Below, one piece after another: positions 8,905 to 61,190 of a DNA stretch of 64,000 nucleotides. The position numbers were made by a program, and so were the translations under genes. The notes below the pieces were generated by a model. It saw nothing but the letters and a program-made list of their open reading frames with translations, made no database searches and was not told where the DNA came from. The DNA comes from a virus, in the IMG/VR virus record IMGVR_UViG_3300025809_000014, positions 1-64,000 of that record; one strand, 5' to 3'. The stretch's first letter is position 1. Every line of letters starts with the position of its first letter.

Positions 8905-9042
8905 ATGCCTATACCAAATAAACAAATCGGCTGGAGTGCAACAGAAAACTTGTTGTGGAATATCTCGAAACAGTTAGAAAGACTGATTCAAGTAACAGGT
9001 AAGAATAATCCTACTACCACAACTACTACCACTACTCCGTAA
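8905..9042 (+). CDS. 45-aa microprotein with C-terminal Pro-Thr8-Pro (MPIPNKQIGWSATENLLWNISKQLERLIQVTGKNNPTTTTTTTTP)
   Basis: Read from the sequence; A-rich leader and an upstream TATTTTTG -7 box at 8878-8885. Confidence 0.7.
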   Translation: MPIPNKQIGWSATENLLWNISKQLERLIQVTGKNNPTTTTTTTTP

Positions 9043-9072
9043 CAAGAATTAAAAAACCAATAACTACATATT

Positions 9073-10011
9073 ATGATCAGCATATGTTCACAACCAGATG
9101 AACCATATTTTCACTGGCAAAACTTAGTACAATTCCACAATCTAGAAAAGATGGGATTATTAAAAGACCATCGTGCAGTGTTTTTATACAAAGCTGGGAG
9201 AAAGGCTTCAGAGTTTTTGAATAAGTTTAAAGAAGCATTCCCTGAAAATGTTTTCATTTTTGAAGACACTAGACAGCAAAAACATTACATACCTACATTA
9301 AAAATACATGGAGTTGTTAAGTATTTGCAGGATGACACTAAGGAACAAGATCTATTTTTAATAGATTCAGATGTTATATTTAGAGAACCTATTGATTACA
9401 GTTTGTTTAAACAAGACAACACTGTTTATTGCAGCGATACTAAAGGTTACCTAGGATATCAATACCTTAAAACAAAAGGTGATGAGATTGTAAAAGATAT
9501 GTGTAACTATATTGGTGTTTCTTTTGATACAATTGTTGAGAAGAATGATGACTCTGGAGGAGCTCAGCTATACTATAAAGGAATTCCTCATGACATACTA
9601 TTAGATTACTTCAAAGAAGTTGAGGTGCAATCACCTAAATTATATGATGTTATGAGAAAACATAAAACATATAATGATTATGATCCTCCAATACAAGCTT
9701 GGACTTCAGAAATGTGGTGTGTTCTATGGTTACTATGGAAACGAAACATTAAAACTGAGATTGTCAAAGAACTAAACTTTAGATGGGCCACAGATTCTAT
9801 AGAGATGTGGGAAACCTACAAAATCTTACACATGGCTGGTGTTGTACCAGATCATAAAGATAAGTTTTATAAAGGGCATTTTATAAATAACAACCCTTTT
9901 AATTACAATTACGACTATGTAGATGATAAATCTATAACAAAAATCTACATAGAAGAGATAATAAATACTAAGAACTCAAAAACTTTTGAGAAGCTAGTAT
10001 CTGAATTTTAA
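9073..10011 (+). CDS. GT-A glycosyltransferase resembling peptidyl O-glycosyltransferases (GT96 SERGT1 / GT95 HPAT)
   Basis: Ordered motifs YFHWQ, YIPTLKIHGVVKYL, FLIDSDVIFREPI (DxD) and AWTSEMW. Confidence 0.7.
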   Translation: MISICSQPDEPYFHWQNLVQFHNLEKMGLLKDHRAVFLYKAGRKASEFLNKFKEAFPENVFIFEDTRQQKHYIPTLKIHGVVKYLQDDTKEQDLFLIDSDVIFREPIDYSLFKQDNTVYCSDTKGYLGYQYLKTKGDEIVKDMCNYIGVSFDTIVEKNDDSGGAQLYYKGIPHDILLDYFKEVEVQSPKLYDVMRKHKTYNDYDPPIQAWTSEMWCVLWLLWKRNIKTEIVKELNFRWATDSIEMWETYKILHMAGVVPDHKDKFYKGHFINNNPFNYNYDYVDDKSITKIYIEEIINTKNSKTFEKLVSEF

Positions 10012-10049
10012 TATAACCTTAATTACTAACCCTTTAAAACAAATTAAAA

Positions 10050-10478
10050 ATGGGAAGCATTAACAAAAGACCGTTAAAGGCATACGTGAGATTCGATGGA
10101 TCTGGGCGTGTAGTAGCAGGTTCTCTTGTATTACGCAGGAATAAACCTAAGGTTGGAAATTGGCAGGAGATTGTAGCATATGAATGTTGCAACCCTACAA
10201 CTACAACAACAACAACAGCACCTTTACCAGCAGGTCAGATTTCTTCAACTTCTGACGTAGCTAACGCATGTACTGAAACACTAGACACTACTGTGTATTT
10301 ACAACTAGCAAGTGTACCTTCAATAGCAATAAATGATATAATCTATCTTGATGCTTCAGGAAGCACTCCTTTCGTTGGAGATGGATCTTACCATAGAGTT
10401 GCAAGTACTGATGGCCAAGAATGGAATGTACAAGTAAACGCTACTGGAGTAGTTCTAGCAGCTGCACTGTGTGTATAA
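10050..10478 (+). CDS. Probable virion accessory protein with CCNP-Thr7 linker
   Basis: Basic N-terminal domain, poly-Thr linker, small beta-rich C-terminal domain. Confidence 0.6.
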   Translation: MGSINKRPLKAYVRFDGSGRVVAGSLVLRRNKPKVGNWQEIVAYECCNPTTTTTTTAPLPAGQISSTSDVANACTETLDTTVYLQLASVPSIAINDIIYLDASGSTPFVGDGSYHRVASTDGQEWNVQVNATGVVLAAALCV

Positions 10479-10487
10479 TATAACTAA

Positions 10488-10518
10488 TAGCTAGGGGTGA
10501 AAACCCCTGGCTGTTTTT
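10488..10518 (+). terminator. Intrinsic terminator
   Basis: TAGCTAGGGGT-GAAA-ACCCCTGGCTG followed by T5. Confidence 0.8.
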
Positions 10519-10531
10519 AACTTAAATATTA

Positions 10532-10819
10532 ATGGAGATAAACAAGAAGTTCTTTCCTGAAGTCTTGTTAGAAAACGAAAAAGCCTATTTTGCACATCTT
10601 GAAGGTGTGATAGGTTCTGTTGATGAGTACTCTAATTTGCAGATTACTCATACAAACAATGCCTACATCTTTAGGTTAGCACCTAGTATGCCTAAGTATA
10701 ATGACATGCTGCTAGAAGAGATTCTTAGACTCCATAATATGTTTAGAATAAAGTTAGATATATCAAAAAGTATAAAAACTACAGGTACTATTGTATTTAA
10801 GATAGACTTGGAAAGCTAA
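10532..10819 (+). CDS. Hypothetical protein
   Basis: 95-aa ORF with A-rich leader. Confidence 0.65.
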   Translation: MEINKKFFPEVLLENEKAYFAHLEGVIGSVDEYSNLQITHTNNAYIFRLAPSMPKYNDMLLEEILRLHNMFRIKLDISKSIKTTGTIVFKIDLES

Positions 10820-10838
10820 CAAATGTTTAGTATATTTG
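10807..10838 (+). promoter_or_regulatory. Bacteroidota-type promoter
   Basis: CTTG-N20-TATATTTG. Confidence 0.65.
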
Positions 10839-10871
10839 TTAGAATTATTATAAACCAATAAATTAAAAATT

Positions 10872-11126
10872 ATGGCACAGTACGATCCAAACAAACGTTA
10901 CACATGGGGACCTGACTCTAAATTTGAACTATCAGGACAAGATTTTGGACTAATTCTTAATACAGTTAGAACATTTTTAGCAACTGAAGAGGCTGGTAAA
11001 TATCAGTTAATGATGCGAACTAATGAAATAATTGAAAAGCTTATGAAAGAAGGAGTTACAAATGAAGTAATTGTTGAAGCTCCAGAAACAGAAACACCTG
11101 CTCCTGCATTGGAAGCAGTAAAGTAA
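10872..11126 (+). CDS. Hypothetical protein
   Basis: 84-aa ORF after a promoter and A-rich leader. Confidence 0.65.
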   Translation: MAQYDPNKRYTWGPDSKFELSGQDFGLILNTVRTFLATEEAGKYQLMMRTNEIIEKLMKEGVTNEVIVEAPETETPAPALEAVK

Positions 11127-11150
11127 AAAACAATCAAAACTTAAGAACTT

Positions 11151-11345
11151 ATGCCTGTAAAGAAAGCTAAGGGAGGGAAGAAAATGATTAAACGTAAAGA
11201 TGGATCCTATAGTCGAAGAGGGCTATGGGATAACATCCGTGCGAACAAAGGTAGTGGTAGAAAACCTACTAAGGCTATGTTAAAGCAAGAGAAAAAGATT
11301 AAAGCAAAAACAAAAAAGAAGAGGGCTACAAAGAAAAAGAAGTAG
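11151..11345 (+). CDS. Small Lys/Arg-rich protein
   Basis: 64 aa, strongly basic, with a GLWDNIRA core. Confidence 0.7.
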   Translation: MPVKKAKGGKKMIKRKDGSYSRRGLWDNIRANKGSGRKPTKAMLKQEKKIKAKTKKKRATKKKK

Positions 11346-11347
11346 TA

Positions 11348-11644
11348 ATGGCTAAGAAAGAAAAAGCTATCAGAAAAACCACTAAGGGTAAATCTGCTAA
11401 TTACAGAGCTACCAAGAAAGGTGCTGGGATGACTAAAAAAGGAGTCAAAGCCTACAGAAAAGCTAATCCTGGATCTAAATTAAAAACTGCTGTAACAGGT
11501 AAGGTTAAGAAAGGATCTAAAGCTGCAAAGAGACGTAAGTCTTATTGCGCTCGTAGTTTGGGACAGTTAAAACGCAGTAGTGCAAAAACTAAAAACAATC
11601 CTAATTCTAGAATAAGACAAGCTAGAAGAAGGTGGAAATGTTAA
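11348..11644 (+). CDS. Small Lys/Arg-rich protein (DUF6321-like)
   Basis: RRKSYCARS...NSRI...RRWKC motif. Confidence 0.65.
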   Translation: MAKKEKAIRKTTKGKSANYRATKKGAGMTKKGVKAYRKANPGSKLKTAVTGKVKKGSKAAKRRKSYCARSLGQLKRSSAKTKNNPNSRIRQARRRWKC

Positions 11645-11662
11645 ATCTCAAAATATATAATT

Positions 11663-11902
11663 ATGATGCGTAAGTATAAAGCAGGTGGAGCTAAAAAGAA
11701 AAAAGCTATGTCTGGAACTAAAATGAAAAAAGCTAAGGCTGGATTAAAGACACCTAAACCTTCACAGAAAGGACTTAAGAAACTGCCTACAGCTGTCCGT
11801 AATAAAATGGGATATGCTAAGAAAGGTAAAACAGTAGCTAAGAAAGCTGGATATGGTAAATCCATGAAAGCTAAAGCTGGTTGTAGAACTAGAAAAAAAT
11901 AA
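11663..11902 (+). CDS. Histone H1/Hc-like Lys/Ala-rich protein
   Basis: KAK/KAG repeats; no acidic residues. Confidence 0.65.
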   Translation: MMRKYKAGGAKKKKAMSGTKMKKAKAGLKTPKPSQKGLKKLPTAVRNKMGYAKKGKTVAKKAGYGKSMKAKAGCRTRKK

Positions 11903-11920
11903 AACACTAACTAATCAACA

Positions 11921-11948
11921 AAGAAGCCCCTTAATTGGGGCTTTTTTT
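11921..11948. terminator. Bidirectional intrinsic terminator at the convergence of the + and - blocks
   Basis: AAGCCCC-TTAATT-GGGGCTT with A- and T-tracts on either side. Confidence 0.8.
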
Positions 11949-11949
11949 A

Positions 11950-12219
11950 TTATAAAGAGTTTATGAAGTGAATGGTCCATGCTATCAACCCATTAAGTTG
12001 CAATAGCACCAGGTTCCACTGTCTTCTAACAGCTACCTGTATCATTACACATATAAACCCTGCTATAAAACATGTTGGTATAAGTGTCCACTGTCCCATG
12101 ATTAAAAAACCTACACCCATGTAACCAACTCTTGTAGCTAGTCTTTCTATAGGAGATAGTCTTCTGTCTCTAACCATTGCTCTAAGCAGTGGCATCCATC
12201 TTGCTTTTATCTTTTTCAT
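11950..12219 (-). CDS. Small multi-pass membrane protein
   Basis: About three hydrophobic helices in 89 aa. Confidence 0.6.
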   Translation of the reverse strand: MKKIKARWMPLLRAMVRDRRLSPIERLATRVGYMGVGFLIMGQWTLIPTCFIAGFICVMIQVAVRRQWNLVLLQLNGLIAWTIHFINSL

Positions 12220-12863
12220 TTTGTATAACTGTTATCATATACATTCTTTTCAAAGAATTTATATTTGGTTTTAAATTTATGTAACAGATAGGGTAGACTT
12301 ATTTGATCTTGTATGGACCATAAACAATTATGGTAAAACCATTCTTTCATTAAGTTATACTCTCTATTCTCCACCACACTTTTAGAGTAAATAAATGTAC
12401 CACACTCTACTAAAAAGTTGTCATTCCAATCGTTATCTTTTTGGTAATGACTTAGTTGTTCGTGTAACTTTTCTCCTCTATATCTATCTAAAATGTATTG
12501 ATTGTTACCATTTAGAAGATCTATTACAAATTTAGTCTCTGATTCTACAGAAGATCTTCCAGAATGTTTAAAGAAACATGCATCAGTGTCTCTACAATAG
12601 TCTACCATTCGTTCAATGGCCCTACCATTTAACAAAGAGAAAGAAGAATCTAACCATATATAATAATCATATCCTGGATAGTCTTCCCAAGCTAACATCT
12701 TTGGCATTTTTGCACGCAATCTAGGATGCATTGCTAAAGGCCTAGCACTGTCAGTTTCATCACTTATTCTATTAAGAGTTATGTCATACTTATTAGACTC
12801 TTGAGGTACCCATGTAGAATGTAGAGGGCTACTAAATGATGCTGTAGTTACTAATACTTTCAT
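12216..12863 (-). CDS. GT-A glycosyltransferase (DUF616/TOD1-MUCI70-like)
   Basis: AKMPKML, YYIWLDSS, FFKH..R, QDQISLPYLL. Confidence 0.7.
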   Translation of the reverse strand: MKVLVTTASFSSPLHSTWVPQESNKYDITLNRISDETDSARPLAMHPRLRAKMPKMLAWEDYPGYDYYIWLDSSFSLLNGRAIERMVDYCRDTDACFFKHSGRSSVESETKFVIDLLNGNNQYILDRYRGEKLHEQLSHYQKDNDWNDNFLVECGTFIYSKSVVENREYNLMKEWFYHNCLWSIQDQISLPYLLHKFKTKYKFFEKNVYDNSYTK

Positions 12864-13618
12864 TTTATAAAGTCAGATAACATTTTTGCATAATCTTTAT
12901 TCCATTTGGGACGCAAGTATACTTCACCTGTAGGTATATTACCTTTTATCCTCTCGTTTTCTATGTGAGCTGAGTGTCTTTCTATAATATTAGGTTTAGT
13001 GTCATCATCTGCACCTTGTCCAGATTGATGATATCCTCTACCGCCCCACATGTAAAACCAAGAAGCTTCTTTTTCAGGGAGCTTAACATTATTAACATAC
13101 TGTCTTCCAAAACCATGGATCTTATTTGTTAAAATTGCATCACCACCAGCATTTACTAATGGACTTTTACCTATTCTCTCCCAGACACTCTTACTATATA
13201 CTATTCCTGAGTTACCCACTCCAGTTATAGCTGTAATGTTAGGTTCATTATAAAACACACCTGTTTCCCAGTGTATTATATTAGTATCATGATTCCAGTT
13301 CTGAGCTATGTTTGTTAAATGATTAGTTAGTGCTACATCATCGTCATCCCATACAGCAATAAGATCTCCTTTACATCGCTCAATAGCATAGTTCTCTTTC
13401 TCTCCTATTAAAGGAAATGTTTCATCTAAGTTATAAATGGTAACTTGGGGGTGATCGTATATTAGTTTTTGTTTGGGGTAATCATTAACAATAACTAACT
13501 CACATCTATCTTTTGGATAATCCTGTATAAGAAAGCTATAAAGTGCTTCTTCTAGTGTATCAACTCGTCCGTATGTAATACATTTACAAGATATAAAAGG
13601 AAATCGACTCATTACCAA
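12860..13618 (-). CDS. Glycosyltransferase family 2
   Basis: ITYGR..LEEAL, ELVIVND, GDLIAVWDDDD. Confidence 0.85.
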   Translation of the reverse strand: MVMSRFPFISCKCITYGRVDTLEEALYSFLIQDYPKDRCELVIVNDYPKQKLIYDHPQVTIYNLDETFPLIGEKENYAIERCKGDLIAVWDDDDVALTNHLTNIAQNWNHDTNIIHWETGVFYNEPNITAITGVGNSGIVYSKSVWERIGKSPLVNAGGDAILTNKIHGFGRQYVNNVKLPEKEASWFYMWGGRGYHQSGQGADDDTKPNIIERHSAHIENERIKGNIPTGEVYLRPKWNKDYAKMLSDFIK

Positions 13619-13908
13619 ACATGTAATATATCAAACGGAGATACTAATAGTACATCTTTTTCATCAGTTAGAGGAATAACCATTGCATCTTTTAACTTTC
13701 CTGGATCTACTAATACTATATCACCAGGTTTTACAGTCTTCACTATGTCTCCAACATCATAAACTTTAAGTTTAGACATCTTTTTTAACATCTGACGCTG
13801 TAACTCTTCTTTAGTGTTCTCGTCAACTATAATTTTACTCTCATCTTTTTTAGGAATCTCTACATAAATTCTGTTTCCTAATAATGCTTTGTATAATTTC
13901 TTTGCCAT
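13612..13908 (-). CDS. groES: Co-chaperonin GroES-like
   Basis: LLGNRIYVE...IIV...VYDVGD..KTVKPGDIVLV; 98 aa. Confidence 0.75.
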   Translation of the reverse strand: MAKKLYKALLGNRIYVEIPKKDESKIIVDENTKEELQRQMLKKMSKLKVYDVGDIVKTVKPGDIVLVDPGKLKDAMVIPLTDEKDVLLVSPFDILHVW

Positions 13909-13909
13909 T

Positions 13910-14209
13910 TTATTCTATGTTTGTTAGTTTTCTAAATCTTTCAATATCTTCTCCATGTAAGTAAGCTTCTGTCTGGTAGACTTCCACTTTCTTTTTAGTG
14001 CCAATAACCTTATTGTTCTTATGGTTAATGTTAGGCACCTCTGTGATACGCTCATGCATGTCATCTAGTAAGACAACAATTGAGTCATCGTTCATCTGAA
14101 CGCTACGAATTACTTTGTTAAGGTTAATACTGTCCGTGTACTCTTTGTACTCTACAGGATCTGTATCCTGTATAGCCTCTTTACGTGTGTAAAAAAATTG
14201 GTTTTTCAT
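13910..14209 (-). CDS. Hypothetical protein
   Basis: 99-aa ORF in a tight operon. Confidence 0.65.
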   Translation of the reverse strand: MKNQFFYTRKEAIQDTDPVEYKEYTDSINLNKVIRSVQMNDDSIVVLLDDMHERITEVPNINHKNNKVIGTKKKVEVYQTEAYLHGEDIERFRKLTNIE

Positions 14210-14224
14210 AATTTTGATTTTAAT

Positions 14225-14683
14225 TTAGTTCCATGATCCACTACCACCAAATGCACCTAGGCCTTCACCTATACCTGCAGCTGTAGCATTTCCACTTGTT
14301 CCCCAAGTTACTTGACATACACCACCATCTTCTGCACCAAATGCAACACCAAATGTTGTAGCCTTTAACAATGTGTCCTGATTACCATAGTAGATAACAC
14401 CTTCACATGTAAGATCACCTACACCAACTCCTCCTGATCCACCTTGGAATTCATAAGACTTTGATCCATCATTGAACTCTACAGTTACGTGTGCATAAAA
14501 TAAAAACCCTTCTACAGTGATTGTACAAGGATGACTAACAACACCATCCATATCTTCTGTAAAACTTTGAGCTGGACGTACATCTAATACTCTTTGATTA
14601 CCATCAGAATCTGGTGTGTTAGGATTGATACCATGAGCAGCAAACCATTTTTCTGCTCTCTTTCTTTTTTGTTCTTTGTTCAT
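14225..14683 (-). CDS. VapA/VapB (Rhodococcus equi virulence-associated protein)-like beta-barrel
   Basis: FY..V....F.G.SGG.G.G....G.IY....L....F...GGSGSW C-terminal pattern. Confidence 0.55.
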   Translation of the reverse strand: MNKEQKRKRAEKWFAAHGINPNTPDSDGNQRVLDVRPAQSFTEDMDGVVSHPCTITVEGFLFYAHVTVEFNDGSKSYEFQGGSGGVGVGDLTCEGVIYYGNQDTLLKATTFGVAFGAEDGGVCQVTWGTSGNATAAGIGEGLGAFGGSGSWN

Positions 14684-14692
14684 AATGTTGAT

Positions 14693-15106
14693 TTATATAT
14701 TTAACTTGTATTTATCTATAAGATATTCTCGTATCTCATTTATTTTTTTATACTTGTAGATATCAGATTCTACATTAGCATGTTCATCAGCTGTCAAAAG
14801 TATAATATTTTCTTTAAGATTCCTAAATTGTGGGTATTTACTTTTAGGAAGTATATGATGAAAATACAAACTAAGCGCTTCTTTACCTAGATATGCACCA
14901 CTCACTTCAGATTTATGAGGTCTTTCTTTCCAAATCTCTTTGAATGTTATATGGTCTGTGTTTGGTTTGGATTTACCAACATTAACTTTACTTTTAAGAG
15001 CTAATGTTGGTTTTTTAAATCCCCTGTTGCCAGACAGTTGTTTTCTAGGCTTATGTTGGAAACAATACTCAGAGTCTGAGTTCTTTCCACATACTAAACA
15101 TTTCAC
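14693..15106 (-). CDS. HNH-type endonuclease with N-terminal Zn ribbon
   Basis: CLVC..CFQH; HHILPKS...NIILLTADEH. Confidence 0.7.
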   Translation of the reverse strand: MKCLVCGKNSDSEYCFQHKPRKQLSGNRGFKKPTLALKSKVNVGKSKPNTDHITFKEIWKERPHKSEVSGAYLGKEALSLYFHHILPKSKYPQFRNLKENIILLTADEHANVESDIYKYKKINEIREYLIDKYKLNI

Positions 15107-16260
15107 AGATCAGATGCATCAAATAGGTCAGGTGATAACACTTGAGGAGCAGTCACTTCTATATCTTTTGCTGCTTCATAATGTATACCGTCATTACCAT
15201 TCTGTCCTATAATATTCATCCTTTCATCGTTTTCTACAATTGGTTCTGGTTCTACTTCAGGTTCTTCTTCAATGCCTTTAATTGCAGAAACTAATGTAGA
15301 TTTTATTGTATCAAAGAAGTTTACATCTTCTAACACCATTTGTTTAAATTCTTCTAAGTCATACTTTACACCGTCAAATGTATACGTTTTACCATACTTA
15401 CGACCTAACTCAAAATCATGTAGCATTTGTAACGCTTCTCCCACTCTATCTATACCTATACCATATACAATATCAAATTGATGCTTCTGGTATGGAGGTG
15501 TCATCTTATTTTTTGTACATCTAACCTTAGTAATGTTACCGTACACATCTTGACCATCCTTTGCTAGTGACCTACTAACTTCTATTCTTACATCAGAATA
15601 AAACTTTAGTGCATGACCACCTTGTGTAGTTGTAGGATTTCCAAACATAACACCAATCTTTTCTCTATATTGAGAGATTACTATAAGACATGTGTTTGTA
15701 TTATGTGCAATAGACTTTAGTTTTGGGTAAGCGCTACTATTTAATCTAGCCTTCTTACCTATTGCATGTTCTCCTACTTCTCCATCTAATACAGCTTTAG
15801 GTATTAATGATGAGTCTGAATCTATAATAATAAGATCCACTTCTCCAGATGACATTAACTCTACAGCAATGTTAAAACCTTCTTCTCCAGATGATGGTTG
15901 TGCAATTAACATACTTCCTGTGTCAACACCTAGAGCTTCAAAGTAATTCTTATCAACAGCATGCTCGCCATCAATATAAACTACTTTACCTCCTTTAGCT
16001 TGAGCGCTAGCTACAGCATGTCCACATATAGTAGATTTACCTGTACCTTCCCAGCCCATAAGCTCGTACATTTTACCTTTTGCAAAACCACCTATCCCTA
16101 AGGTGATCCAATCGAAACCTATTGATCCTGTACTAATTAGATCATAGTCCCCTCCTGTTTTACTGTTTAAAGCTAATACAGTACCTTGACCATATTGCTT
16201 GTTTAACTTTTCCAGCGCATCCTGGAATTTATTCCCTGTTTCTTTCAGCTTTTTCGCCAT
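15103..16260 (-). CDS. recA: RecA recombinase
   Basis: ISTGSIGFD, GWEGTGKST (Walker A), YIDGEHA, QYREKIGVMFGNPTTTQGGHALKFY. Confidence 0.95.
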   Translation of the reverse strand: MAKKLKETGNKFQDALEKLNKQYGQGTVLALNSKTGGDYDLISTGSIGFDWITLGIGGFAKGKMYELMGWEGTGKSTICGHAVASAQAKGGKVVYIDGEHAVDKNYFEALGVDTGSMLIAQPSSGEEGFNIAVELMSSGEVDLIIIDSDSSLIPKAVLDGEVGEHAIGKKARLNSSAYPKLKSIAHNTNTCLIVISQYREKIGVMFGNPTTTQGGHALKFYSDVRIEVSRSLAKDGQDVYGNITKVRCTKNKMTPPYQKHQFDIVYGIGIDRVGEALQMLHDFELGRKYGKTYTFDGVKYDLEEFKQMVLEDVNFFDTIKSTLVSAIKGIEEEPEVEPEPIVENDERMNIIGQNGNDGIHYEAAKDIEVTAPQVLSPDLFDASDL

Positions 16261-16283
16261 ATTTAATTGTTTTAAATTATATT

Positions 16284-16315
16284 CAAATATACTAAAATCT
16301 ACTCTATTTTACAAG
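16284..16315 (-). promoter_or_regulatory. Bacteroidota-type promoter for the recA operon
   Basis: CTTG-N20-TATATTTG on the minus strand. Confidence 0.7.
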
Positions 16316-16316
16316 C

Positions 16317-16348
16317 AAAAAAAGGCCTTAGATTTCTCCAAGGCCCCT
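16317..16348 (-). terminator. Intrinsic terminator
   Basis: GGCCTTGGA-GAAA-TCTAAGGCC followed by T7 on the minus strand. Confidence 0.85.
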
Positions 16349-50533: not shown

Positions 50534-52087
50534 ATGGCAATTCAAACAATCCCAGGTCTAACTGGTTTTACTTATGCACGAGTAGCTTCTATGGATAAGC
50601 GTGCTGTAGGAAAACTAACAGACGCAAATCACTTAGAGTCTTTCCACTCTACTGAGCCTGCGGACTATGATAAAAAGATTATCAGTCTGTATACTCAATC
50701 TTCATTGTATAGCAATGATTTCCTTGACATGATCAACAAAAGCACTCCTTATTATATTGATAATAATAGTGATGCTTGGAAATGGAAAATCGCTGTACCT
50801 TACAAATTCCCAAAAATCATTGATATTCCTGATTCAACAGCTGCTATGGCTAAACCAGGTATTGATGGTCAAGAGTTTCAGTTAATACTTGATACTAACG
50901 AATTCTCTAAAAATGCTATTATATCTGTAGGAACACGTCAGTATGGACCACGTTTCTACGTAATTAAAGATCCACAGCCTTGGAATGCTGGATTTATTTA
51001 CACATTTACTTTAGTAAGTGACAACCCAACTGTAGATTTTGTAAGCTCTACTTTCTTATCTACTGGTATCGAATTAGAATTAGTTGATGCTGCAATTGGA
51101 GAGTTTGACCAAGATTTATTAGGACTTCCAAGATTGGGCGAAGAGATCACTATGTTTGAATCATTAGGTTCTGCATATGGATACGAGCACAAAATTACTG
51201 AATGGGCTGATGACAAAATGTTACGTGATTCTTCAGGTAAAGCATTAGACATCTTAGTATATGCTCCACAAAGACGTAATCAACTACCTTTAACAAGAAA
51301 TGATGTTAAATGGGAGCCTTTCGTTGAGTTCTGGATGCGTAAGTCTATGATAGAGTTGAAAGTTAAGAGAATGATCTGGGCTAAGCCTGGAACAGTTAAG
51401 ACTAACGGTTCTAAACAAGAATTAAAAAGAACTTCTGCTGGTGTATACCACAGAATGAGAAATAACGGAAACTTAGTACAATATAATAGAGGTGAGTTCT
51501 CTGCAAACTTGATTCGTTCAGTATTTGGAGACTTATTCTATAGAAGAGTAGACGTTAAAGATCGTAGAGTTAAAATGTATACTAATGAGGCTGGATTCGA
51601 TGTATTCCAACAAGCTCTTAAAGATGATGCACTTAACTCTGGATTAACATTTATGGCTGATTCTGGAAACAGATACATGCAAGGAGAAGGACAGTCTATT
51701 ACTTATAACTTTGCATTTGATGCAATGGTTACTCGTGAGACTGGACGTGTAGAACTTGTTCACTTAAAAGAACTAGATTTGCCACAAACTAATCTAGAAT
51801 TCGGACAAAACAAGAAGTCTACTCCTGTATTCATGGTATTTGATGTTTCTCCTCAGTCTGATGGATCAATGATCAACAACATCCGTGAGGTACGTATGAA
51901 GGGTGCACCTTCTATGACTTGGGGTTATATTGATGGAACTCGTCACCACTTAGGTTTTGCTAAGTCTCAAGGTATGAGCTCTGCTAATAAATTCCCAGGA
52001 TACGAAATCTGGATGAAAGATCGTTGTGATGTATTCATCGAGGATTTATCTAGAACTGTACTTATCGAAGAGATTCCACAGTTCTAA
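50534..52087 (+). CDS. Major capsid protein (crAss-like)
   Basis: 517 aa in the TerL-portal-scaffold-MCP order; MYTNEAG..VF and H..ELD motifs; followed by strong hairpins. Confidence 0.85.
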   Translation: MAIQTIPGLTGFTYARVASMDKRAVGKLTDANHLESFHSTEPADYDKKIISLYTQSSLYSNDFLDMINKSTPYYIDNNSDAWKWKIAVPYKFPKIIDIPDSTAAMAKPGIDGQEFQLILDTNEFSKNAIISVGTRQYGPRFYVIKDPQPWNAGFIYTFTLVSDNPTVDFVSSTFLSTGIELELVDAAIGEFDQDLLGLPRLGEEITMFESLGSAYGYEHKITEWADDKMLRDSSGKALDILVYAPQRRNQLPLTRNDVKWEPFVEFWMRKSMIELKVKRMIWAKPGTVKTNGSKQELKRTSAGVYHRMRNNGNLVQYNRGEFSANLIRSVFGDLFYRRVDVKDRRVKMYTNEAGFDVFQQALKDDALNSGLTFMADSGNRYMQGEGQSITYNFAFDAMVTRETGRVELVHLKELDLPQTNLEFGQNKKSTPVFMVFDVSPQSDGSMINNIREVRMKGAPSMTWGYIDGTRHHLGFAKSQGMSSANKFPGYEIWMKDRCDVFIEDLSRTVLIEEIPQF

Positions 52088-53996: not shown

Positions 53997-54026
53997 AAAT
54001 TAATTATTAACCTTAAATCATAAACA

Positions 54027-55169
54027 ATGGCTGATTTTTCATTAACCACGTTATTCGTGGTGCCAGTAGGGCAAACTGCTGTCCCTAGCTCTGGTTCGAC
54101 TCAAGATTTAACTGCAGGAACTGTAGGAATCTTTGATCAAAATTATGCAACTGTAACTGCTGCTGCTGGAGCAAATCCTGCTAGTGATGCAAAGTACATT
54201 TACATCGCTCAAGGTAGAGCAAACACTTATTTACAAGGATCTAAAAGATCTGACAAGATTAAAGGATGCCCAACAGCTGGTGCTTCCTGCAATTCAAATG
54301 TAACAGAATGGTACAAAGTATCAGGTTGTGCTACTGCTGCTAATCAAATTACTGATGTAACAGACTTCAAAGTACAATGTGGTGAAATCGTAACTTTAAC
54401 ATTACGTGCTCACTCTTCTTACATTGATACACTATACTTCAATGGATTTACACGTTCTGTAACTGTAAATGCTCCATGTTGTGAATGTGGTGGTGATGTA
54501 TGTACTGATGTAGATGTTAACGCATTAATCAACTCTCTAATTGTTAAATTACAACAAGAGGCTCCTGGAGATAATCCAGACAACGTTTCTTTCAACTCTT
54601 TCTTTACTTTTGAAAATGTTGGTGGAACTAAACTTAGAATCGAAGGTAAACCATTAACTAAATATGGTCAACCTTGTGATGTTGCTGCATTCCCATTCGA
54701 GTATGACAGAATGTACTTCAGTACTTTTGTATACGATGGACCAGCTACAACTGCTGATTTTATTGTTGCTGACGCTTGTAATATCGTTGCTAACTCTGCT
54801 GTAGTCCAAAAAGCATCTTATGCTTCTGGAGGATCTGAAGAATTCAAGCAATTAGAAAAGAACTTCTACAGCTACCAAGCTGGATATTTAAAGTCACTAT
54901 ATAGAATGGGTGGCTACAATGAGAACTTTGAATCTTATGTGACTGATGGAGTTGTTTACGATAGCTACTACATTAGATTTAACCAATTAGATAAGGCAGC
55001 TTATCAATGGGGAGATTACATCATGCAAGACTCAACTGTAATCATTGCTGTACCTAATGCTGACACAAGTGGAATTGCTGCTCTTATTGAGCCAATCCTA
55101 GAAGATGCTTTAGGACTTGTTGATGATGACAACACTTGTATTACAACTACGACTACTGCTGCTGCTTAA
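54027..55169 (+). CDS. Structural protein (auxiliary capsid/decoration candidate) with C-terminal Thr5
   Basis: 380 aa, beta-rich, Cys pairs, own terminator; ends CITTTTTAAA. Confidence 0.6.
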   Translation: MADFSLTTLFVVPVGQTAVPSSGSTQDLTAGTVGIFDQNYATVTAAAGANPASDAKYIYIAQGRANTYLQGSKRSDKIKGCPTAGASCNSNVTEWYKVSGCATAANQITDVTDFKVQCGEIVTLTLRAHSSYIDTLYFNGFTRSVTVNAPCCECGGDVCTDVDVNALINSLIVKLQQEAPGDNPDNVSFNSFFTFENVGGTKLRIEGKPLTKYGQPCDVAAFPFEYDRMYFSTFVYDGPATTADFIVADACNIVANSAVVQKASYASGGSEEFKQLEKNFYSYQAGYLKSLYRMGGYNENFESYVTDGVVYDSYYIRFNQLDKAAYQWGDYIMQDSTVIIAVPNADTSGIAALIEPILEDALGLVDDDNTCITTTTTAAA

Positions 55170-55208
55170 ACAGCGTCAGAAGTAGGGATAGAACATTAAC
55201 ATAAACCT

Positions 55209-55254
55209 ATGCCAGAGGTGAGAGGATTATCTCATATCCTCTGGCATTTTTTTT
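55209..55254 (+). terminator. Intrinsic terminator
   Basis: ATGCCAGAGG...CCTCTGGCAT followed by a T-tract. Confidence 0.85.
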
Positions 55255-55265
55255 AAAACAATAGT

Positions 55266-55838
55266 ATGGCAGCCACATTACAATTAGATATTATAGTACC
55301 TCCTACCTATAGTACTTCATTGCTTGCTGTTACAGATGCATCTGTCTATCCAGACAGCCCACCAATTGTATCAGCTCCAACAATTGAGATAGAAATACCA
55401 AATTTTGGTAAACAGATATTACCTTTTCTACCATTAGAAACTAATATCTTTGGATCAGACACTTTAGGAATAACTGAAGATGGCTGCAAACAAGCATTAC
55501 CTGATGGTATATATAAATTAAAATATTCAATAGCTCCAGCATATGTAAACTATGTTGAGAAGACTATTATGCGTGTTGACAAATTACAGGAGAAATTTGA
55601 CAGTGCATTTTTAAAACTTGATATGATGGAGTGCGATAGTGCTCTTAAAACTCAAGCTAGTGTAAATTTAAACACAATAAACTTTTTTATTCAAGGAGCA
55701 ATTTCTTTAGCAAATAATTGTGCTGAGCAAGATGCTCTTAAGTTATATACAAAAGCAAGCAACATGCTTGATCAATTTATAAAAACCAATTGTGGTTGTA
55801 CTGGTAACGGTAACAATTACATAATAAACTTTAGATAA
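55266..55838 (+). CDS. Virion structural protein
   Basis: D.S.YP and LPDGIY.LKYS motifs; structural block. Confidence 0.6.
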   Translation: MAATLQLDIIVPPTYSTSLLAVTDASVYPDSPPIVSAPTIEIEIPNFGKQILPFLPLETNIFGSDTLGITEDGCKQALPDGIYKLKYSIAPAYVNYVEKTIMRVDKLQEKFDSAFLKLDMMECDSALKTQASVNLNTINFFIQGAISLANNCAEQDALKLYTKASNMLDQFIKTNCGCTGNGNNYIINFR

Positions 55839-55840
55839 AA

Positions 55841-56002
55841 ATGGCCCAGTGTGCAAATTGTGGTGCAAAGGTAGGATGTGGATGTCAGTTAACTAACGGT
55901 CTATGTGCTCATTGTAATGGTAATTCTAAAAAGGAAGTAACAACATCAACTTATGTTAACACCCAGATTAACAAACTGTCAGGACTGTCACAAGATACCT
56001 GA
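55841..56002 (+). CDS. 53-aa Cys-rich microprotein (MAQCANCGAKVGCGCQLTNGLCAHC...)
   Basis: Read from the sequence; ATG 2 nt after the previous stop; overlaps the next gene. Confidence 0.6.
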   Translation: MAQCANCGAKVGCGCQLTNGLCAHCNGNSKKEVTTSTYVNTQINKLSGLSQDT

Positions 56003-57872
56003 TTTACTTAGACAGATAGACTGTAAGATAGCAGAGCTTGCTAACGGTGCATACAATAATGTTGTATTCATGTTAGGTGATTGTGTTCCTGCTACTACAA
56101 TTGTTCAGTTACTAGCATATAAACGTATATTAACGTTTAAATACTGCAATCCTCATTATGGAGGATGTTCGTCTGTCAATGATATTGCTGGTAAAGTTAT
56201 TCGTTTAACATCTGGATGTGTTGCTAAATGTAACGAACCTACAGTATGTGAAATAACAACATGCCCTATACCTATAGTACCAAACCCAACAACTACAACA
56301 ACTACTACTTCTCCAATAATTTGTGAGTTTAGTGGAAATATAATTTGTATTCCACCAACAACCACTACAACTACTACTACTATATTACCAGATTGTAGAG
56401 TTGAAGGATGTTTCCAAATTAGAGAGATCCCACCTCCACCTCAATGTGATGCACCTTTTAATACAAATTTACCAGAAGGTTTCCCTGATGGTATAACAGG
56501 TAACGGTACAAAAGTATTATCTAATGGTGTTCAATTAACTACAACTTATACAGGACCAACAATTTCACCTTTTTTATTAACAGATCCTGGAACAGAGGAG
56601 TTATGTGATGGAGTATTGATTAATACATATAATGATACTGACAAGACTCAGCTACCTCTAATAATAGGAGGATCTATAGTTTTAGAATTTGACCCACCTG
56701 TAGTTTCTGTAGCACTTGTTAGTACTGGATACGGATACAGTAGTTTATTAGGTGAGGTAGAAACTATAACTGTAGAGTCTTTAGATCCTATTATAGGTGA
56801 AACATTACTTAGCTGTAGCTTAAATGAAGCTAATGCTACATACGAAACAACTCAAGTTAATGAAAATCAAATTAACTTAACAGGTGTACAAATTAGCCCA
56901 AGTTTACAAACTGGTATTACTGTTATTACACCAGAAGCAGGAGGTATATCTAGATTAGTATTAACTAACACTACAAGTCTTCCATTAGCTGGTGTAGCAT
57001 TTGATTTATATGCATGTGGTGGAGTAGCTCCAACAACTACAACCACTACAACTGTTATTCCACCAGGTCCTGAGTGTACAGAGGGGCTGGATGTAGCATT
57101 TGTAATTGATTATACTGCATCTATGACTAGTGTAATTGAAAATGTAAAATCAGGAGTAGCAGGTATTGTAAATGCTATTTATACTCAGTCAGGTGCTGGT
57201 GGGTATAGATTAGCTCTAACTACTAGTGATCAATATTTTGATACAATAGATCCATATTATGGAAATTGTTTTGATTATTTACAATTACCATTATCTCAAA
57301 GATTAATAGAAGGACCTTTTCCAACAGCAGCACCAAATTCTATTGACACAAACATAGTAAGTACTGCTTGGGAAAAATTTAGTGATAATAATCAAGCAAC
57401 ATTTAATGCACAACTTCAAAAATTAAATGAAGGTGTAGATGGTAATTGTATACAAATAGGAGAGGGTGCAGCTGGTCCAGAACCTTGTGATTATGTTTCC
57501 AAATTAATTATAGAATCAGATTTTGTAGGAGCATTTAGACCAACTGCTGCAAAGCGTATTATTATATTAACTGATCAATTTCCAGGAAGCACTAGAGATT
57601 ATTTTGACGTAGTTACTTGGCAAGGTATACAAGATCTAATTACACATGCTAATGCAAATGGAATTAAATATTTTGTTTTAGGTATGGGTGTTAATTTGGT
57701 TGGTGGTCCATATCCAAATACTAATCAAAGTGTTGCTGGTATATATCCATGGAGAGAGTTAGCAGAACAAACTGGTGGAGATTGGAGCTTTGATGCAACT
57801 TCAGAAGAAATACAACAGCAAATAGTAGCTGGATGTGAGACAACTACAACTACAACCACAAATCAAAACTAA
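55953..57872 (+). CDS. Modular virion protein: Cys-rich N-terminus, poly-Thr linkers, beta-sandwich module, vWA domain
   Basis: LDVAFVIDYTASM (MIDAS-like), IIILTD, ELAEQTGG; four Thr7-8 tracts. Confidence 0.75.
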   Translation: MLTPRLTNCQDCHKIPDLLRQIDCKIAELANGAYNNVVFMLGDCVPATTIVQLLAYKRILTFKYCNPHYGGCSSVNDIAGKVIRLTSGCVAKCNEPTVCEITTCPIPIVPNPTTTTTTTSPIICEFSGNIICIPPTTTTTTTTILPDCRVEGCFQIREIPPPPQCDAPFNTNLPEGFPDGITGNGTKVLSNGVQLTTTYTGPTISPFLLTDPGTEELCDGVLINTYNDTDKTQLPLIIGGSIVLEFDPPVVSVALVSTGYGYSSLLGEVETITVESLDPIIGETLLSCSLNEANATYETTQVNENQINLTGVQISPSLQTGITVITPEAGGISRLVLTNTTSLPLAGVAFDLYACGGVAPTTTTTTTVIPPGPECTEGLDVAFVIDYTASMTSVIENVKSGVAGIVNAIYTQSGAGGYRLALTTSDQYFDTIDPYYGNCFDYLQLPLSQRLIEGPFPTAAPNSIDTNIVSTAWEKFSDNNQATFNAQLQKLNEGVDGNCIQIGEGAAGPEPCDYVSKLIIESDFVGAFRPTAAKRIIILTDQFPGSTRDYFDVVTWQGIQDLITHANANGIKYFVLGMGVNLVGGPYPNTNQSVAGIYPWRELAEQTGGDWSFDATSEEIQQQIVAGCETTTTTTTNQN

Positions 57873-57881
57873 GTAAAGAAA

Positions 57882-60800
57882 ATGATAATATTTATAACAT
57901 TAAGTTTCGCAGGTGCAGAGTCAGGTCCTTTTGATCTGTACTCTGATGTTGATGGTTTTACTACACCATTTGCACAAAATGTAAGCAAGGCTGACCTTTT
58001 ATTAGGTTATGAAGCCGTAGCTCCTGATGGAACAACAACTGTTAGATTGTTAGATTTAGGTGCAGACTGTGCACCCTTTACAACAGATATATACAACTGT
58101 GCTACACCAAATTGTGATTTCTCTGGAGAGATTAATTGTATAATACCAGACTGTAACTTTAGTGGAACAATTGTTTGCCCTGCGCCAGAAACTACAACCA
58201 CCACTACTACTGGATATCCAGGATTCTCACCATGTACTTGGTCAACTTATGGAGGTAACCCTGGAGAAATAGCTGTATACGACTTTAATACTGGTTCATC
58301 AACCGTGGTGTTAGTACCTAATGATTTTACAACCACTTCAGGAATAAACAGACCTATCTGTTCTACATCAAGTAAGTTATGGTTAGCTGGCTATCCTGCA
58401 TCTTCTACAACTTGTGGTAATATTAATATAACTAAACCAGAAGGTTTCCCTAATGCTGTAACAGGAAATGGAACAAAAACATTATCTAATGGTGTAGTGT
58501 TAACTACAACATATACTGGTCCTGCTCCAATATATGATTCACAACCAGGAAATTGGGAGGTATGTGATGGATTTTACCTAAATCGGACAAATACTAGTAC
58601 AAGTGCAAGTTTCTCATTAAAAGTTAATGGAGAATTGACTATGGAGTTTGATCCTCCTATAAACTGTATTCAATTTATATCTAGTGCATGGGGTTATAGT
58701 GGAGATCCAAAAACAGAAGGTGATATGGAGATTGTATCTGTAACCAGTGCGTCTTCTATTATAGGTGAGCAGATTATGCAATGTACTAGAGGTAATGATC
58801 CTGAAGACATTCCTACATACCAAACAATACAGATAAGTCCAAATCAAGTTAACATGCAAGGTTATCAGGAGTTTGAAAATTCGTCTTTTCAAGTTGGATC
58901 AACTAGAATTATATCAGAAGAGAACGGTATTTCAAAATTAGTACTTACTAATATATCTCCAACAAATGTGAGGGGAGTAATTATTGATTTCTATGTAGAC
59001 GATATTTCGGTTACAAATAATCCTACTGGACTTCAATATATTAGAGAATGGGATATAGATACATCTGGTGCTACACCAACTCTATCTTTTGTTAGAGAAA
59101 TATCTATTGACGTAGATAATCTATCTAACCAAGGTATATGGGGAAGTGAAATAACTGCAATAGCTACAACTACTGACAATAATACATTACTTGCAGGATT
59201 TGGTGCAAGAGATAATGGCGAAACTAGTATGGGTGTTTACTCATGGGATATTTCTACATCTGGTAATATTTTACTAAATGAAAGTAATAAAATAGATAAA
59301 GCATCTGTAAGTTTTGGTAATACGTTTGGAATTATAACAGAGCTTACAGGAATGTTTATCACTAATGATGACAATGTTATTCTTTCTGCTAGATACTACG
59401 AAGATGAAAGTCCTAATAATGCAGCAAACCGTGTAAGACAATATGAAGGACTAGACTTAAGTTCTTGGACATCATCATCACCTGTTATTAATTTACAACA
59501 GCGTGGTGTTCCTGAATTTACCACTGCGTGGACTAGTACAAGTAAAGCTATGCCTGTATGGGGCGTAAATGGATTATTACAGGTAATTCAACCAGAAACA
59601 CTTCAAGTATATAACATTGATCAAATAGGACCATACAATGCTACACTGTCAGGTACAGTGGCTGATGATACTGTTTGGATACACACATCAACTGGTTGTG
59701 CAAATGTTAATATTCAGTATGATGATTGTGAAGGAGCTACGTGGATACCTGCATTAACTGAACAAATTGAAGATGAGTGGGTATATACAGGACCTGCTAC
59801 TTTTACATATGCAGGAGTTGAGGTTACAGCTAGTGCCACTCAAGATAATATGAGATTACAATCAGGTGATACTATAGGAGGTATACCACAAGAAGGATGT
59901 AGTGGAATATCTAACCCATCTGCAAATAATGTATTAACAACTCTTAAAGGTTTTGATTTTACTATTACGTTAAGTTTTTCACAGCCTGTTAATAATATTC
60001 CTATTAGAGCTGCTGTACTTAATAGTCAACCTGACTTAAGTTCTGGAGATGTTTATACATTTGACACAAACACAGGAACACCTACTGTATCAATTAGTAC
60101 TGGATGTAATGTTCAAGTGCAAGGAAATAAAATAGGTGGAGGTGTACCAGATTACAATACTGAAGGTGACGGAGAGTTTATTGTATCGTCTGATGAAAAC
60201 TATACAATTTTAACTATATCTGGTGATGCACCAACTGGAGGACCATTATTATTAGGTTGTTTAGAAGTTGAAAAAAACTGTACATGGGCAACACCTTTTA
60301 GAGGAAGTGCTGGAGCTGATACAGTGTTTATATATAACCCACTAGCTAATACATATTTACCACAATCTCTTTCAAATGGGTTTGGTAGTGTATTTGACTA
60401 TCTCAGAGGAAATTTTAGCTCAGAGAATATTTTGTTTTTTGCAAAAAAAGATGGATCTGATCTTCGTATAAAAAGATATAATATAGGACAAGGTTTAACA
60501 TACATTGATGAGATAGTAGTAACTGCTCCTTCTGGTGAACAATTTTCAGCACCAGTTACATGTGCGATAGATGATAATACTCTTTTATTAAATACAACCC
60601 AAGGAACTCTAGGGTACGTTGGTAAAATATATAAACTAGTAATAAATTCAGACGGTACAACTACACTAACATTCTTATTTACTTTAGAAAGTGAGAGACC
60701 TTATTGGACATCTCCGATATTTTCAAATAATAAAATAATATATCAGAGACTAGATACTCAAGATATTGGCGATCCACGTTATATAGTTCAAAGGGATTAC

Positions 60801-61190
60801 GCTACCTTAGATATAGAACTTGAAATAAATGTAACATACTTAGACATTGGTGGATCATCACCAGATGGGTATCTTATTCAGAACACTACCCAGTCTATGT
60901 TTTTCTATGAGGATAAAATGTACATACTTGTAAGTGGTATTAAATTATATGAAATAGATACAACTTTCCCTTACAATACTACATTAATAAATGAAAACAC
61001 AGAATTCTTTGGTCCAGGAGAATTTAATAATCAATATTTAAGAGCTTGGAGTAATTCAGGTGAATGTAGTTCAAACCTATCTTTCATTCCAACAAATGAA
61101 ACTACAACAACTACCACTAGTGTAACAACGCTACCACCAAATGCTCCAAATACAATATGGATAAAGTTTAACCCTGTAACTCCAGCATAG
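57882..61190 (+). CDS. Large modular virion/spike protein with poly-Thr linkers
   Basis: GPFDLYSD N-terminus, module shared with the previous gene, propeller-like segments. Confidence 0.65.
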   Translation: MIIFITLSFAGAESGPFDLYSDVDGFTTPFAQNVSKADLLLGYEAVAPDGTTTVRLLDLGADCAPFTTDIYNCATPNCDFSGEINCIIPDCNFSGTIVCPAPETTTTTTTGYPGFSPCTWSTYGGNPGEIAVYDFNTGSSTVVLVPNDFTTTSGINRPICSTSSKLWLAGYPASSTTCGNINITKPEGFPNAVTGNGTKTLSNGVVLTTTYTGPAPIYDSQPGNWEVCDGFYLNRTNTSTSASFSLKVNGELTMEFDPPINCIQFISSAWGYSGDPKTEGDMEIVSVTSASSIIGEQIMQCTRGNDPEDIPTYQTIQISPNQVNMQGYQEFENSSFQVGSTRIISEENGISKLVLTNISPTNVRGVIIDFYVDDISVTNNPTGLQYIREWDIDTSGATPTLSFVREISIDVDNLSNQGIWGSEITAIATTTDNNTLLAGFGARDNGETSMGVYSWDISTSGNILLNESNKIDKASVSFGNTFGIITELTGMFITNDDNVILSARYYEDESPNNAANRVRQYEGLDLSSWTSSSPVINLQQRGVPEFTTAWTSTSKAMPVWGVNGLLQVIQPETLQVYNIDQIGPYNATLSGTVADDTVWIHTSTGCANVNIQYDDCEGATWIPALTEQIEDEWVYTGPATFTYAGVEVTASATQDNMRLQSGDTIGGIPQEGCSGISNPSANNVLTTLKGFDFTITLSFSQPVNNIPIRAAVLNSQPDLSSGDVYTFDTNTGTPTVSISTGCNVQVQGNKIGGGVPDYNTEGDGEFIVSSDENYTILTISGDAPTGGPLLLGCLEVEKNCTWATPFRGSAGADTVFIYNPLANTYLPQSLSNGFGSVFDYLRGNFSSENILFFAKKDGSDLRIKRYNIGQGLTYIDEIVVTAPSGEQFSAPVTCAIDDNTLLLNTTQGTLGYVGKIYKLVINSDGTTTLTFLFTLESERPYWTSPIFSNNKIIYQRLDTQDIGDPRYIVQRDYATLDIELEINVTYLDIGGSSPDGYLIQNTTQSMFFYEDKMYILVSGIKLYEIDTTFPYNTTLINENTEFFGPGEFNNQYLRAWSNSGECSSNLSFIPTNETTTTTTSVTTLPPNAPNTIWIKFNPVTPA

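Follow-up and report, generated by a model that had tools for sequence, protein, structure and literature searches.

The subject of this analysis is a set of runs of consecutive threonine residues (poly-Thr tracts), together with a gene for a predicted glycosyltransferase that lies among them, in the first 64 kb of one 97,655-bp virus record (IMG/VR record IMGVR_UViG_3300025809_000014; this whole stretch of 64,000 nucleotides is hereafter called the window). The source virus is a marine crAss-like phage, and the tract region contains the late module of such a phage, with terminase, portal and a Pfam Crass_capsid major capsid protein. An earlier sequence-only reading of the window had listed nine runs of five to eight threonines in five plus-strand genes and none in the replication block. 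The coordinates of all nine are exact, and they translate as T8, T7, T5, T7, T8, T7, T7, T7 and T6 (the number giving the count of threonines). All fall in five plus-strand open reading frames (ORFs), and the replication block is free of tracts, since no frame of the minus strand holds a run of four or more threonines. The features concerned are listed below (aa, amino acids; nt, nucleotides; E, E-value).

8905 to 9042, plus strand: 45-aa ORF (an ORF call, conserved in locus L117), a 'stub' of a small N-domain and a poly-Thr tail that ends NNP-T8-P
9013 to 9036, plus strand: Thr8 tract, from the translation of the 45-aa ORF
9073 to 10011, plus strand: predicted 312-aa GT-A (GT8-like) glycosyltransferase, PHROG 4417, candidate tract-modifying enzyme, between the 45-aa and 142-aa tract genes
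10050 to 10478, plus strand: 142-aa protein made of an N-domain, CCNP-T7 and a C-domain; the C-domain is missing in L114, with the junction at the tract
10197 to 10217, plus strand: Thr7 tract of the 142-aa protein; DNA homology to L114 stops at 10216
50534 to 52087, plus strand: Crassvirus major capsid protein (Pfam PF23898, E 2.2e-29; also by PHROG), which marks the late particle module
54027 to 55169, plus strand: predicted 380-aa auxiliary capsid protein (crAss001 gp36-like, from an AlphaFold2 model, Foldseek and VIA-align), ending C-I-T5-AAA
55143 to 55157, plus strand: Thr5 C-terminal tag of the predicted auxiliary capsid protein
55953 to 57872, plus strand: 639-aa modular particle protein with Cys-rich N-domain, T7, T8, module A, T7, VWA-like module, T7
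56289 to 56309, plus strand: Thr7 tract of the 639-aa protein
56358 to 56381, plus strand: Thr8 tract of the 639-aa protein; an architecture junction lies at 56413, 32 nt downstream
57033 to 57053, plus strand: Thr7 tract at the left edge of a VWA cassette common to L014; homology starts at 57030
57840 to 57860, plus strand: Thr7 tract at the right edge of the VWA cassette; L007, L008 and L010 have a further 1052-nt module directly after it
57882 to 61190, plus strand: 1102-aa fibre-like protein with GPFDLYSD N-domain, Cys repeats, T7, large distal domains, T6
58191 to 58211, plus strand: Thr7 linker; a linker indel relative to L007/L010 begins at 58189/58190
61101 to 61118, plus strand: Thr6 tract near the C-terminus of the 1102-aa protein

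Throughout, a tract was defined as a run of at least five threonines; scans at the DNA level used (ACN)5 or (ACN)7 matches, the chance expectation was taken from 300 within-gene shuffles of the whole genome, and gene neighbourhoods were drawn from IMG/VR and GenBank (loci and records carry the letters L and G, respectively). The 97.7-kb genome holds 26-27 such runs against a shuffled mean of 0.68 and a shuffled maximum of 5, and this comparison excludes a chance origin of the tracts. All of them are in plus-strand late genes and 16 are exactly seven residues long. The nine runs of the window make up about one third of the genome total, and 18 more follow just beyond its end in three genes, the first of which the window holds in part.

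63972 to 64229 (in the window, 63972 to 64000), plus strand: 85-aa stub, a GPFDLYSD domain ending T7-LIP
64233 to 65492, plus strand, past the window end: 419-aa protein of 29% Thr with a (T7-VAP/AA)n array
69603 to 76280, plus strand, past the window end: 2225-aa protein with a cluster of Thr runs

The residue directly before the 27 runs is P, E, I, A, Q, L, S or V. Pro takes this position in 14 of the 27 runs genome-wide and in five of the nine in the window. The earlier remark that most runs follow a Pro or Cys needs to be made more exact: one of these residues is no more than two positions upstream in eight of the nine. The general O-glycosylation system of Bacteroidota is periplasmic and uses the sequon D-(S/T)-(A/I/L/V/M/T); we rejected it as the source of the pattern because Asp precedes none of the 27 runs.

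The sequence-only reading had also taken the mixture of Thr codons as a sign of selection on the protein. The mixture itself is the genome's usual Thr usage (ACT 49, ACA 43, ACC 6 and ACG 2% inside the tracts; ACA 52, ACT 39, ACC 5 and ACG 3% outside them), and it is the comparison of orthologues that bears the claim out. Ten full-length orthologues of the 639-aa protein are found in IMG/VR at 62-91% identity, and nine of these (76-91% identity) were compared with the window sequence over the 22 codons of its three internal tracts. Third positions vary in 15 of the 22 codons and first or second positions in none, and the lengths of the three tracts (T7/T8/T7) are identical across the ten compared sequences. 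Both the identity of the threonines and the length of the runs are thus kept by selection on the protein, and slippage-driven variation is ruled out, because the lengths are fixed and only third positions vary.

We next consider the proteins that carry the tracts. Of the five window genes, three have support as virion genes, the exceptions being the 45-aa and 142-aa genes that flank the glycosyltransferase gene. One carrier is the 380-aa protein, whose gene belongs to the capsid block and lies three genes downstream of that for the major capsid protein. Its AlphaFold model (predicted local distance difference test score, pLDDT, 69.5) matches gp36 of ΦcrAss001, which forms the outer layer of the capsid wall with nine copies per asymmetric unit (Bayfield et al. 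2023, PMC10172136; PDB 7QOF). Foldseek returned 7qof_a at E 1.2e-7, and VIA-align gave a Z of 13.3 over 277 aligned residues, with model residues 4-368 paired to residues 6-333 of the 7qof_a chain; matches to FliD fall on residues 105-265, the middle domain. The two-domain PH plus FliD-like fold of gp36 is thereby recovered over the full length of the 380-aa protein, and the two also agree in their capsid-block location. No similarity at the sequence level to gp36 was found by phmmer and a profile search of PDB sequences, which likewise contained no match for three tract proteins or for the auxiliary-capsid profile. On the strength of the model, the 380-aa product is predicted to be an auxiliary capsid protein of the gp36 type. 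Its relatives are encoded on more than 590 IMG/VR stretches, and in 79 of the 80 best of them (at least 71% identity) a poly-Thr tail follows Cys-Ile/Val, as C-I-T7-AA(P) or in longer forms, e.g. C-I-T6-SSAPAS-T5-STLIP. In the window protein this tail is located past the last residue that can be aligned to gp36. The sole tail-less one of the 80 (L040, IMGVR_UViG_3300023196_002416) ends NNVCA, and its contig still has Thr runs in the orthologue of the 639-aa protein.

The other tract proteins are modular. An N-terminal GPFDLYSD domain is common to the 1102-aa, 85-aa and 419-aa proteins, and the order N-domain, Cys-rich repeats, T-linker, distal domain is kept in every relative, with variation in the length and composition of the linker. 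The fibre-like proteins, with their short N-terminal docking domain, match the design of the head fibres gp21/gp29 of ΦcrAss001. The 45-aa and 85-aa proteins consist almost wholly of a small domain with a poly-Thr tail. The L117 form of the former is also 45 aa long and tailed, and the L114 form has 55 aa and ends T6-ATPV-T6-ATP; the L114 form of the 142-aa protein has 71 aa, again little beyond a small domain and a poly-Thr tail. Homology break points and domain architectures bear out the earlier claim that the tracts sit at domain borders or C-termini, and the internal ones form Thr/Pro-rich low-complexity segments between folded domains, as in mucin-like or Pro/Thr (PT) linkers. Pfam and PHROGs returned for the tract proteins just weak VWA matches under the curated cut-offs (E 0.005-0.007) and PHROGs of unknown function, and GenBank phages contained no match to the DNA of the two large tract genes or to the 639-aa and 380-aa proteins. 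In GPFDLYSD-type proteins the T-linker is always preceded by Cys-rich repeats (PNCDFSGEI[NL]C / PDCNFSGTIVC; 58080-58190 in the window, 7944-8060 in L007), which vary in copy number among relatives and might knot the linker base through disulfides or bound metal. The stub and mucin-like genes are closely preceded by a gene (63646-63972) for a 108-aa protein whose N-terminus is rich in Cys (CC..C.C...C..C...C), whose middle part resembles a coiled coil and whose C-terminal sequence is NNNCCS.

The 312-aa protein encoded between the 45-aa and 142-aa tract genes is confidently predicted to be a glycosyltransferase of the GT-A fold. Its AlphaFold2 model has a pLDDT of 96.9, and the top Foldseek matches are WbbM, glycogenin and the catalytic domain of UGGT (probability 1.00, template modelling score 0.5-0.6). 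It has the predicted fold and the DxD motif of these GT8-type GT-A enzymes at an identity of just 11-14%. The motif (D98 and D100; DSD in LIDSDVIF) is invariant across 51 sequences of the family. The protein matches phrog_4417 (E 1.8e-67), annotated as 'unknown function', and there was no Pfam match at E of 1 or below.

The genomic distribution of this enzyme family follows that of poly-Thr, at several levels of comparison. The crAss-like tract lineage comprises 19 IMG/VR records with 3-28 (ACN)7 matches each, all on one strand. In marked contrast, a related lineage of nine records (two complete), with which the VWA module is common at 43-50% identity, contains neither (ACN)7 matches nor runs of five or more threonines, and the tract-free loci (L017-L021, L023-L026 and L033) have no Thr run. 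Both the 312-aa gene and a second glycosyltransferase gene, encoding 986 aa, are present in the three near-complete tract records (3/3), and neither is found in the two complete tract-free records (2/2). Further afield, we examined 80 metagenomic IMG/VR loci at which relatives of the enzyme are encoded (34-94% identity, on contigs of 12-370 kb). Runs of at least five threonines lie within 5 kb of the enzyme gene in 68 of the 80, and in 41 of 79 enzyme loci the next downstream gene bears a Thr run. The 76 loci at 34-40% identity contain 187 Thr runs, all on the strand of the enzyme, compared with 10 runs of Pro, 6 of Gly and 3 of Ser. The preferred run length is T6 in most freshwater loci and T7 in the lineage of the window phage. 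Four jumbo-phage loci from IMG/VR that carry the enzyme (L120, L122, L125 and L188) have pure runs of T15 to T28 in large structural proteins beside the enzyme gene.

A tblastn search with the 312-aa enzyme against 50,697 phage records matched 77 GenBank phages, whose hosts are Enterococcus, Lactobacillus, Lactococcus, Staphylococcus, Clostridium, Arcanobacterium and Chryseobacterium. Nine complete carriers among the 77 were examined (MA9V-3, phiFL1A, R3.3, SA2, 1706, phiCTP1, TPWB06, Planchet and iLp84), and all nine have poly-Thr runs, scored as (ACN)5 matches. In eight of the nine the runs are at the C-termini of the major tail and/or capsid protein or, in MA9V-3, in genes adjoining the enzyme gene. 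The tail protein of phiFL1A ends T5-S-T6-SS-T7-QASSK and that of SA2 DDS-T8-P; the ends in 1706 are T9-HHD and T10-HHD, and iLp84 has T7-SK twice. In eight of the nine, the gene immediately before that of the enzyme encodes the major tail or capsid protein or is a small gene beside one of these, the neighbours in MA9V-3 being unannotated. In contrast, five phages that have a homologous tail protein and no enzyme (Javan47, Javan505, Silenus, phiJL-1 and cIP1) contain no (ACN)5 match and have no Thr run at the end of their tail proteins. The contrast extends to a single genus, Coetzeevirus, in which R3.3 has both enzyme and tails and Silenus, phiJL-1 and cIP1 have neither. In the Enterococcus phage Planchet (L206), the gene for the major capsid protein and that for the enzyme are separated by an unannotated gap with Thr-run coding DNA (record positions 9955-10022). 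This coding DNA is probably a missed small ORF or a C-terminal extension of the capsid protein reached by frameshift. In Staphylococcus phage SA2 (L202, 2667-2930) and Arcanobacterium phage TPWB06 (L205, 2720-2926), a small ORF that encodes a long Thr-rich stretch overlaps the 3' end of the major tail protein gene, a layout that looks like a programmed-frameshift extension, by which the tail tube protein would gain a longer poly-Thr tail.

The window phage encodes three further proteins of glycosyltransferase type beside the 312-aa GT-A enzyme, of the Pfam types GT1 plus GT9, GT2 and TOD1/MUCI70-like.

3568 to 6528, minus strand: 986-aa multi-domain glycosyltransferase (Pfam Glycos_transf_1 plus Glyco_transf_9), a possible glycan-extending enzyme
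12216 to 12863, minus strand: 215-aa TOD1/MUCI70-like glycosyltransferase-like protein (Pfam PF04765, E 7.2e-5)
12860 to 13618, minus strand: 252-aa family-2 glycosyltransferase (Pfam PF00535, E 1.8e-9)

The 986-aa gene is present in the poly-Thr records G001, G003, G021, G022 and G026 and absent from G009-G017. On the opposite strand it overlaps the 3' end of a gene (1818-3584) for a collagen-like tail fibre protein of 588 aa, for which PHROG returned dozens of tail-fibre matches. After the glycosyltransferase operon come three successive small, very Lys/Arg-rich ORFs (11151-11902, plus strand; 64, 98 and 79 aa), which could encode DNA-binding or internal particle proteins.

Comparison with relatives also reveals differences in protein architecture that coincide exactly with the tracts. 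L007, L008 and L010 have an extra 350-residue module after the last tract of the 639-aa protein, L022 has this same module joined directly to the N-domain linker, and in L015 and L016 the VWA module is replaced after the third tract. In L014, the VWA module and the T7 runs on either side of it form the end of a GPFDLYSD-type protein. DNA homology to relatives starts or stops at 10216, 57030, 57859-57866 and 58189-58191, each within 6 nt of a tract edge. Overall, four of seven clear architecture junctions, picked by hand and by eye among close relatives in a post hoc choice, are exactly at a tract edge; tract-edge sites make up 3.8% of the sequence, so that this share greatly exceeds the chance level for the set as picked. 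The 639-aa and 1102-aa genes each contain a copy of module A (PEGFP..TGNGTK..LTTTYTGP), the proteins being only about 37% alike, and the copy in the 1102-aa gene is missing from L007 and L010. A 100-nt patch (56458-56557 and 58423-58526) is 78-89% identical between these two genes in related genomes, a likeness that suggests gene conversion.

We consider it probable that the poly-Thr runs are selected spacers and tags on particle proteins, which are most likely glycosylated by the phage's own GT-A enzyme and which also mark the borders of cassettes. The runs, usually of seven residues, would be exposed peptides that separate the distal domains of fibre-like proteins from the docking domain at the N-terminus, lie between exchangeable modules, and form C-terminal tags on the outer-layer auxiliary capsid protein and the small stub proteins. 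Sugars would be put on their threonines in the host cytoplasm by the enzyme encoded at 9073-10011 and may be extended by the other phage glycosyltransferases. The linkers would thereby become extended, hydrophilic and mucin-like, and capsid and fibres would bear a coat of glycans. The tracts may double as places where particle genes gain, lose and exchange modules, because each tract is a domain joint and all have (ACN)n DNA in common. The proposal of the sequence-only reading that the tracts are glycosylated gains strong support from comparative genomics: the GT-A enzyme lies between two tract genes, its family co-occurs with poly-Thr tails in unrelated phages, and it is absent from tract-free relatives. 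A wider proposal, which we put forward tentatively and regard as possible but doubtful, is that poly-Thr is a portable two-in-one device in phages of several bacterial phyla, serving both as a sequon-free acceptor tag for one glycosyltransferase family and as an (ACN)n recombination joint that carries glycan-tagged modules.

Several results weigh against these proposals. The 312-aa enzyme belongs to no Pfam family, and lipopolysaccharide and glycogen enzymes are among the solved structures closest to it in fold, so that a non-protein acceptor is compatible with this fold. The co-occurrence counts are not phylogenetically independent and amount to roughly four to six independent contrasts. There is no Mycobacterium phage among the 77 tblastn matches, a comparison limited to the 312-aa enzyme. 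With respect to the exchange of modules, three of the seven junctions lie off the tracts, namely 56413 (32 nt past T8 and just past a conserved PDCRVEGCF motif) and the edges of the module-A insertion in the 1102-aa gene (58380-58391 and 59036). When the end points of unfiltered blastn high-scoring segment pairs were used instead (55953-61190 against 31 related loci), three of 28 clusters were within 6 nt of a tract (p = 0.09), although most of these end points reflect fading similarity in distant relatives. Moreover, junctions in tracts are expected from selection alone, since the tracts are the linkers. The earlier suggestion that tract DNA provides microhomology for swapping modules is therefore compatible with the data rather than demonstrated by them, because the junction set was picked by eye, the unfiltered test gave no clear excess and selection would leave the same pattern.

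The explanation that tracts are unmodified hydrophilic spacers and tails, with the glycosyltransferases acting on host surface glycans, lipopolysaccharide or DNA, draws on the resemblance of the 312-aa enzyme to WbbM, an O-antigen enzyme, and glycogenin, and on the generic GT1, GT2 and GT9 types of the other phage enzymes. We judge it unlikely, since it leaves unexplained the joint gain and loss of enzyme and tails in unrelated phages and even within one genus, the position of the enzyme gene next to the tagged capsid or tail gene, and the near-exclusive use of Thr over Ser, Pro and Gly (187 Thr against 3 Ser runs). Thr is the target of many modifications, and the runs might bear another one, e.g. 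phosphate or acyl groups, the linked enzyme being no protein glycosyltransferase. However, the confidently predicted GT-A fold and DxD motif of that enzyme speak against this, no kinase was seen beside the tract genes in the loci examined, and we regard it as very unlikely.

The remaining two explanations concern the DNA of the tracts. Were they mainly recombination joints that act through (ACN)n microhomology and have little function in the protein, the junctions at tract edges and the occurrence of the T7-bounded VWA cassette in two different protein contexts would follow naturally. The threonines and the lengths of their runs are under strict purifying selection while synonymous change is free, which makes this highly improbable, as do the C-terminal tags kept on non-modular proteins (the auxiliary capsid protein and the tail tube of Gram-positive phages), to which nothing is joined. 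Slippage-prone contingency repeats, varying the length of fibres or switching genes, are suggested by the trinucleotide periodicity and by the differing number of units in the mucin-like array and in some linkers between relatives. We rejected these, and find them scarcely credible, given that the mixed codons (ACT/ACA/ACC/ACG) do not make up a pure repeat, that the T7/T8/T7 lengths are the same in ten orthologues of the 639-aa protein and that every length change seen is a multiple of three. Selected spacers and tags, glycosylated by the phage enzyme, thus remain the explanation we prefer.

Mucins and secreted carbohydrate-active enzymes have Pro/Thr-rich O-glycosylated linkers, which are glycosylated in the secretory pathway or the periplasm. 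The phage tracts resemble mucin and PT linkers as Thr-rich low-complexity segments between folded domains, and the (T7-VAP)n array of the 419-aa protein is mucin-like. Unlike those linkers, the phage tracts are nearly pure Thr of fixed length, and the phage proteins fold in the cytoplasm, so that a cytoplasmic enzyme would be needed for them. In the T-even phages, the His-box and Gly-rich motifs of the tail fibres reportedly serve as crossover points that swap adhesin modules (work of Tétart and colleagues in 1998 is said to have established this). Short conserved segments lie between modules in both cases, but the T-even motifs are specific peptide boxes, whereas a homopolymer forms the joint here, with copies only about 80% alike in DNA sequence, and recombination inside it is a proposal. 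Chloroviruses encode glycosyltransferases that decorate their own capsid protein in the cytoplasm (PMC4691112, PMC7019647). In contrast to the phage studied here, they are eukaryotic viruses, the glycans of their major capsid protein are atypical and N-linked, and a poly-Thr acceptor is absent.

The closest precedent for the pairing of enzyme and poly-Thr is the virion glycosylation of mycobacteriophages. In Che8, Corndog and Myrna, phage-encoded glycosyltransferases have been shown to modify the capsid and tail-tube proteins of the phage itself (Freeman et al. 2023, as relayed in PMC12363180 and PMC12582341). As far as these accounts describe it, the two systems are alike in that the enzyme genes are phage-borne, and the tagged proteins here are capsid-layer, fibre and, in the carriers from Gram-positive hosts, tail-tube proteins. 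They differ, within the same accounts, in that the poly-Thr acceptor is recognisable here, that the hosts extend over several phyla, as Bacteroidota-type bacteria and Firmicutes in place of mycobacteria, and that the system is known here from sequence alone. The enzyme family also appears distinct from the Che8 and Corndog glycosyltransferases, the 312-aa enzyme showing no detectable homology to them in its 77 tblastn matches. Our literature search found no description of a poly-Thr/glycosyltransferase pairing in phages.

Since several carriers of both the enzyme and poly-Thr are cultured, the idea is directly testable. If the tracts are glycosylated, self-glycosylation of phages would be widespread beyond mycobacteriophages and would have a readable signature, a poly-Thr run together with one enzyme family, shared by dairy, enterococcal and staphylococcal phages and by the abundant crAss-like phages of marine and fresh waters. 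It would then affect the reading of capsid and fibre proteins in cryo-electron microscopy maps and in proteomics, where it may appear as disordered tails and unexplained masses. For the biology of these phages, it would bear on the contacts of the particle with polysaccharide-rich surroundings and with antibodies, and on how phage fibre genes are assembled from cassettes.

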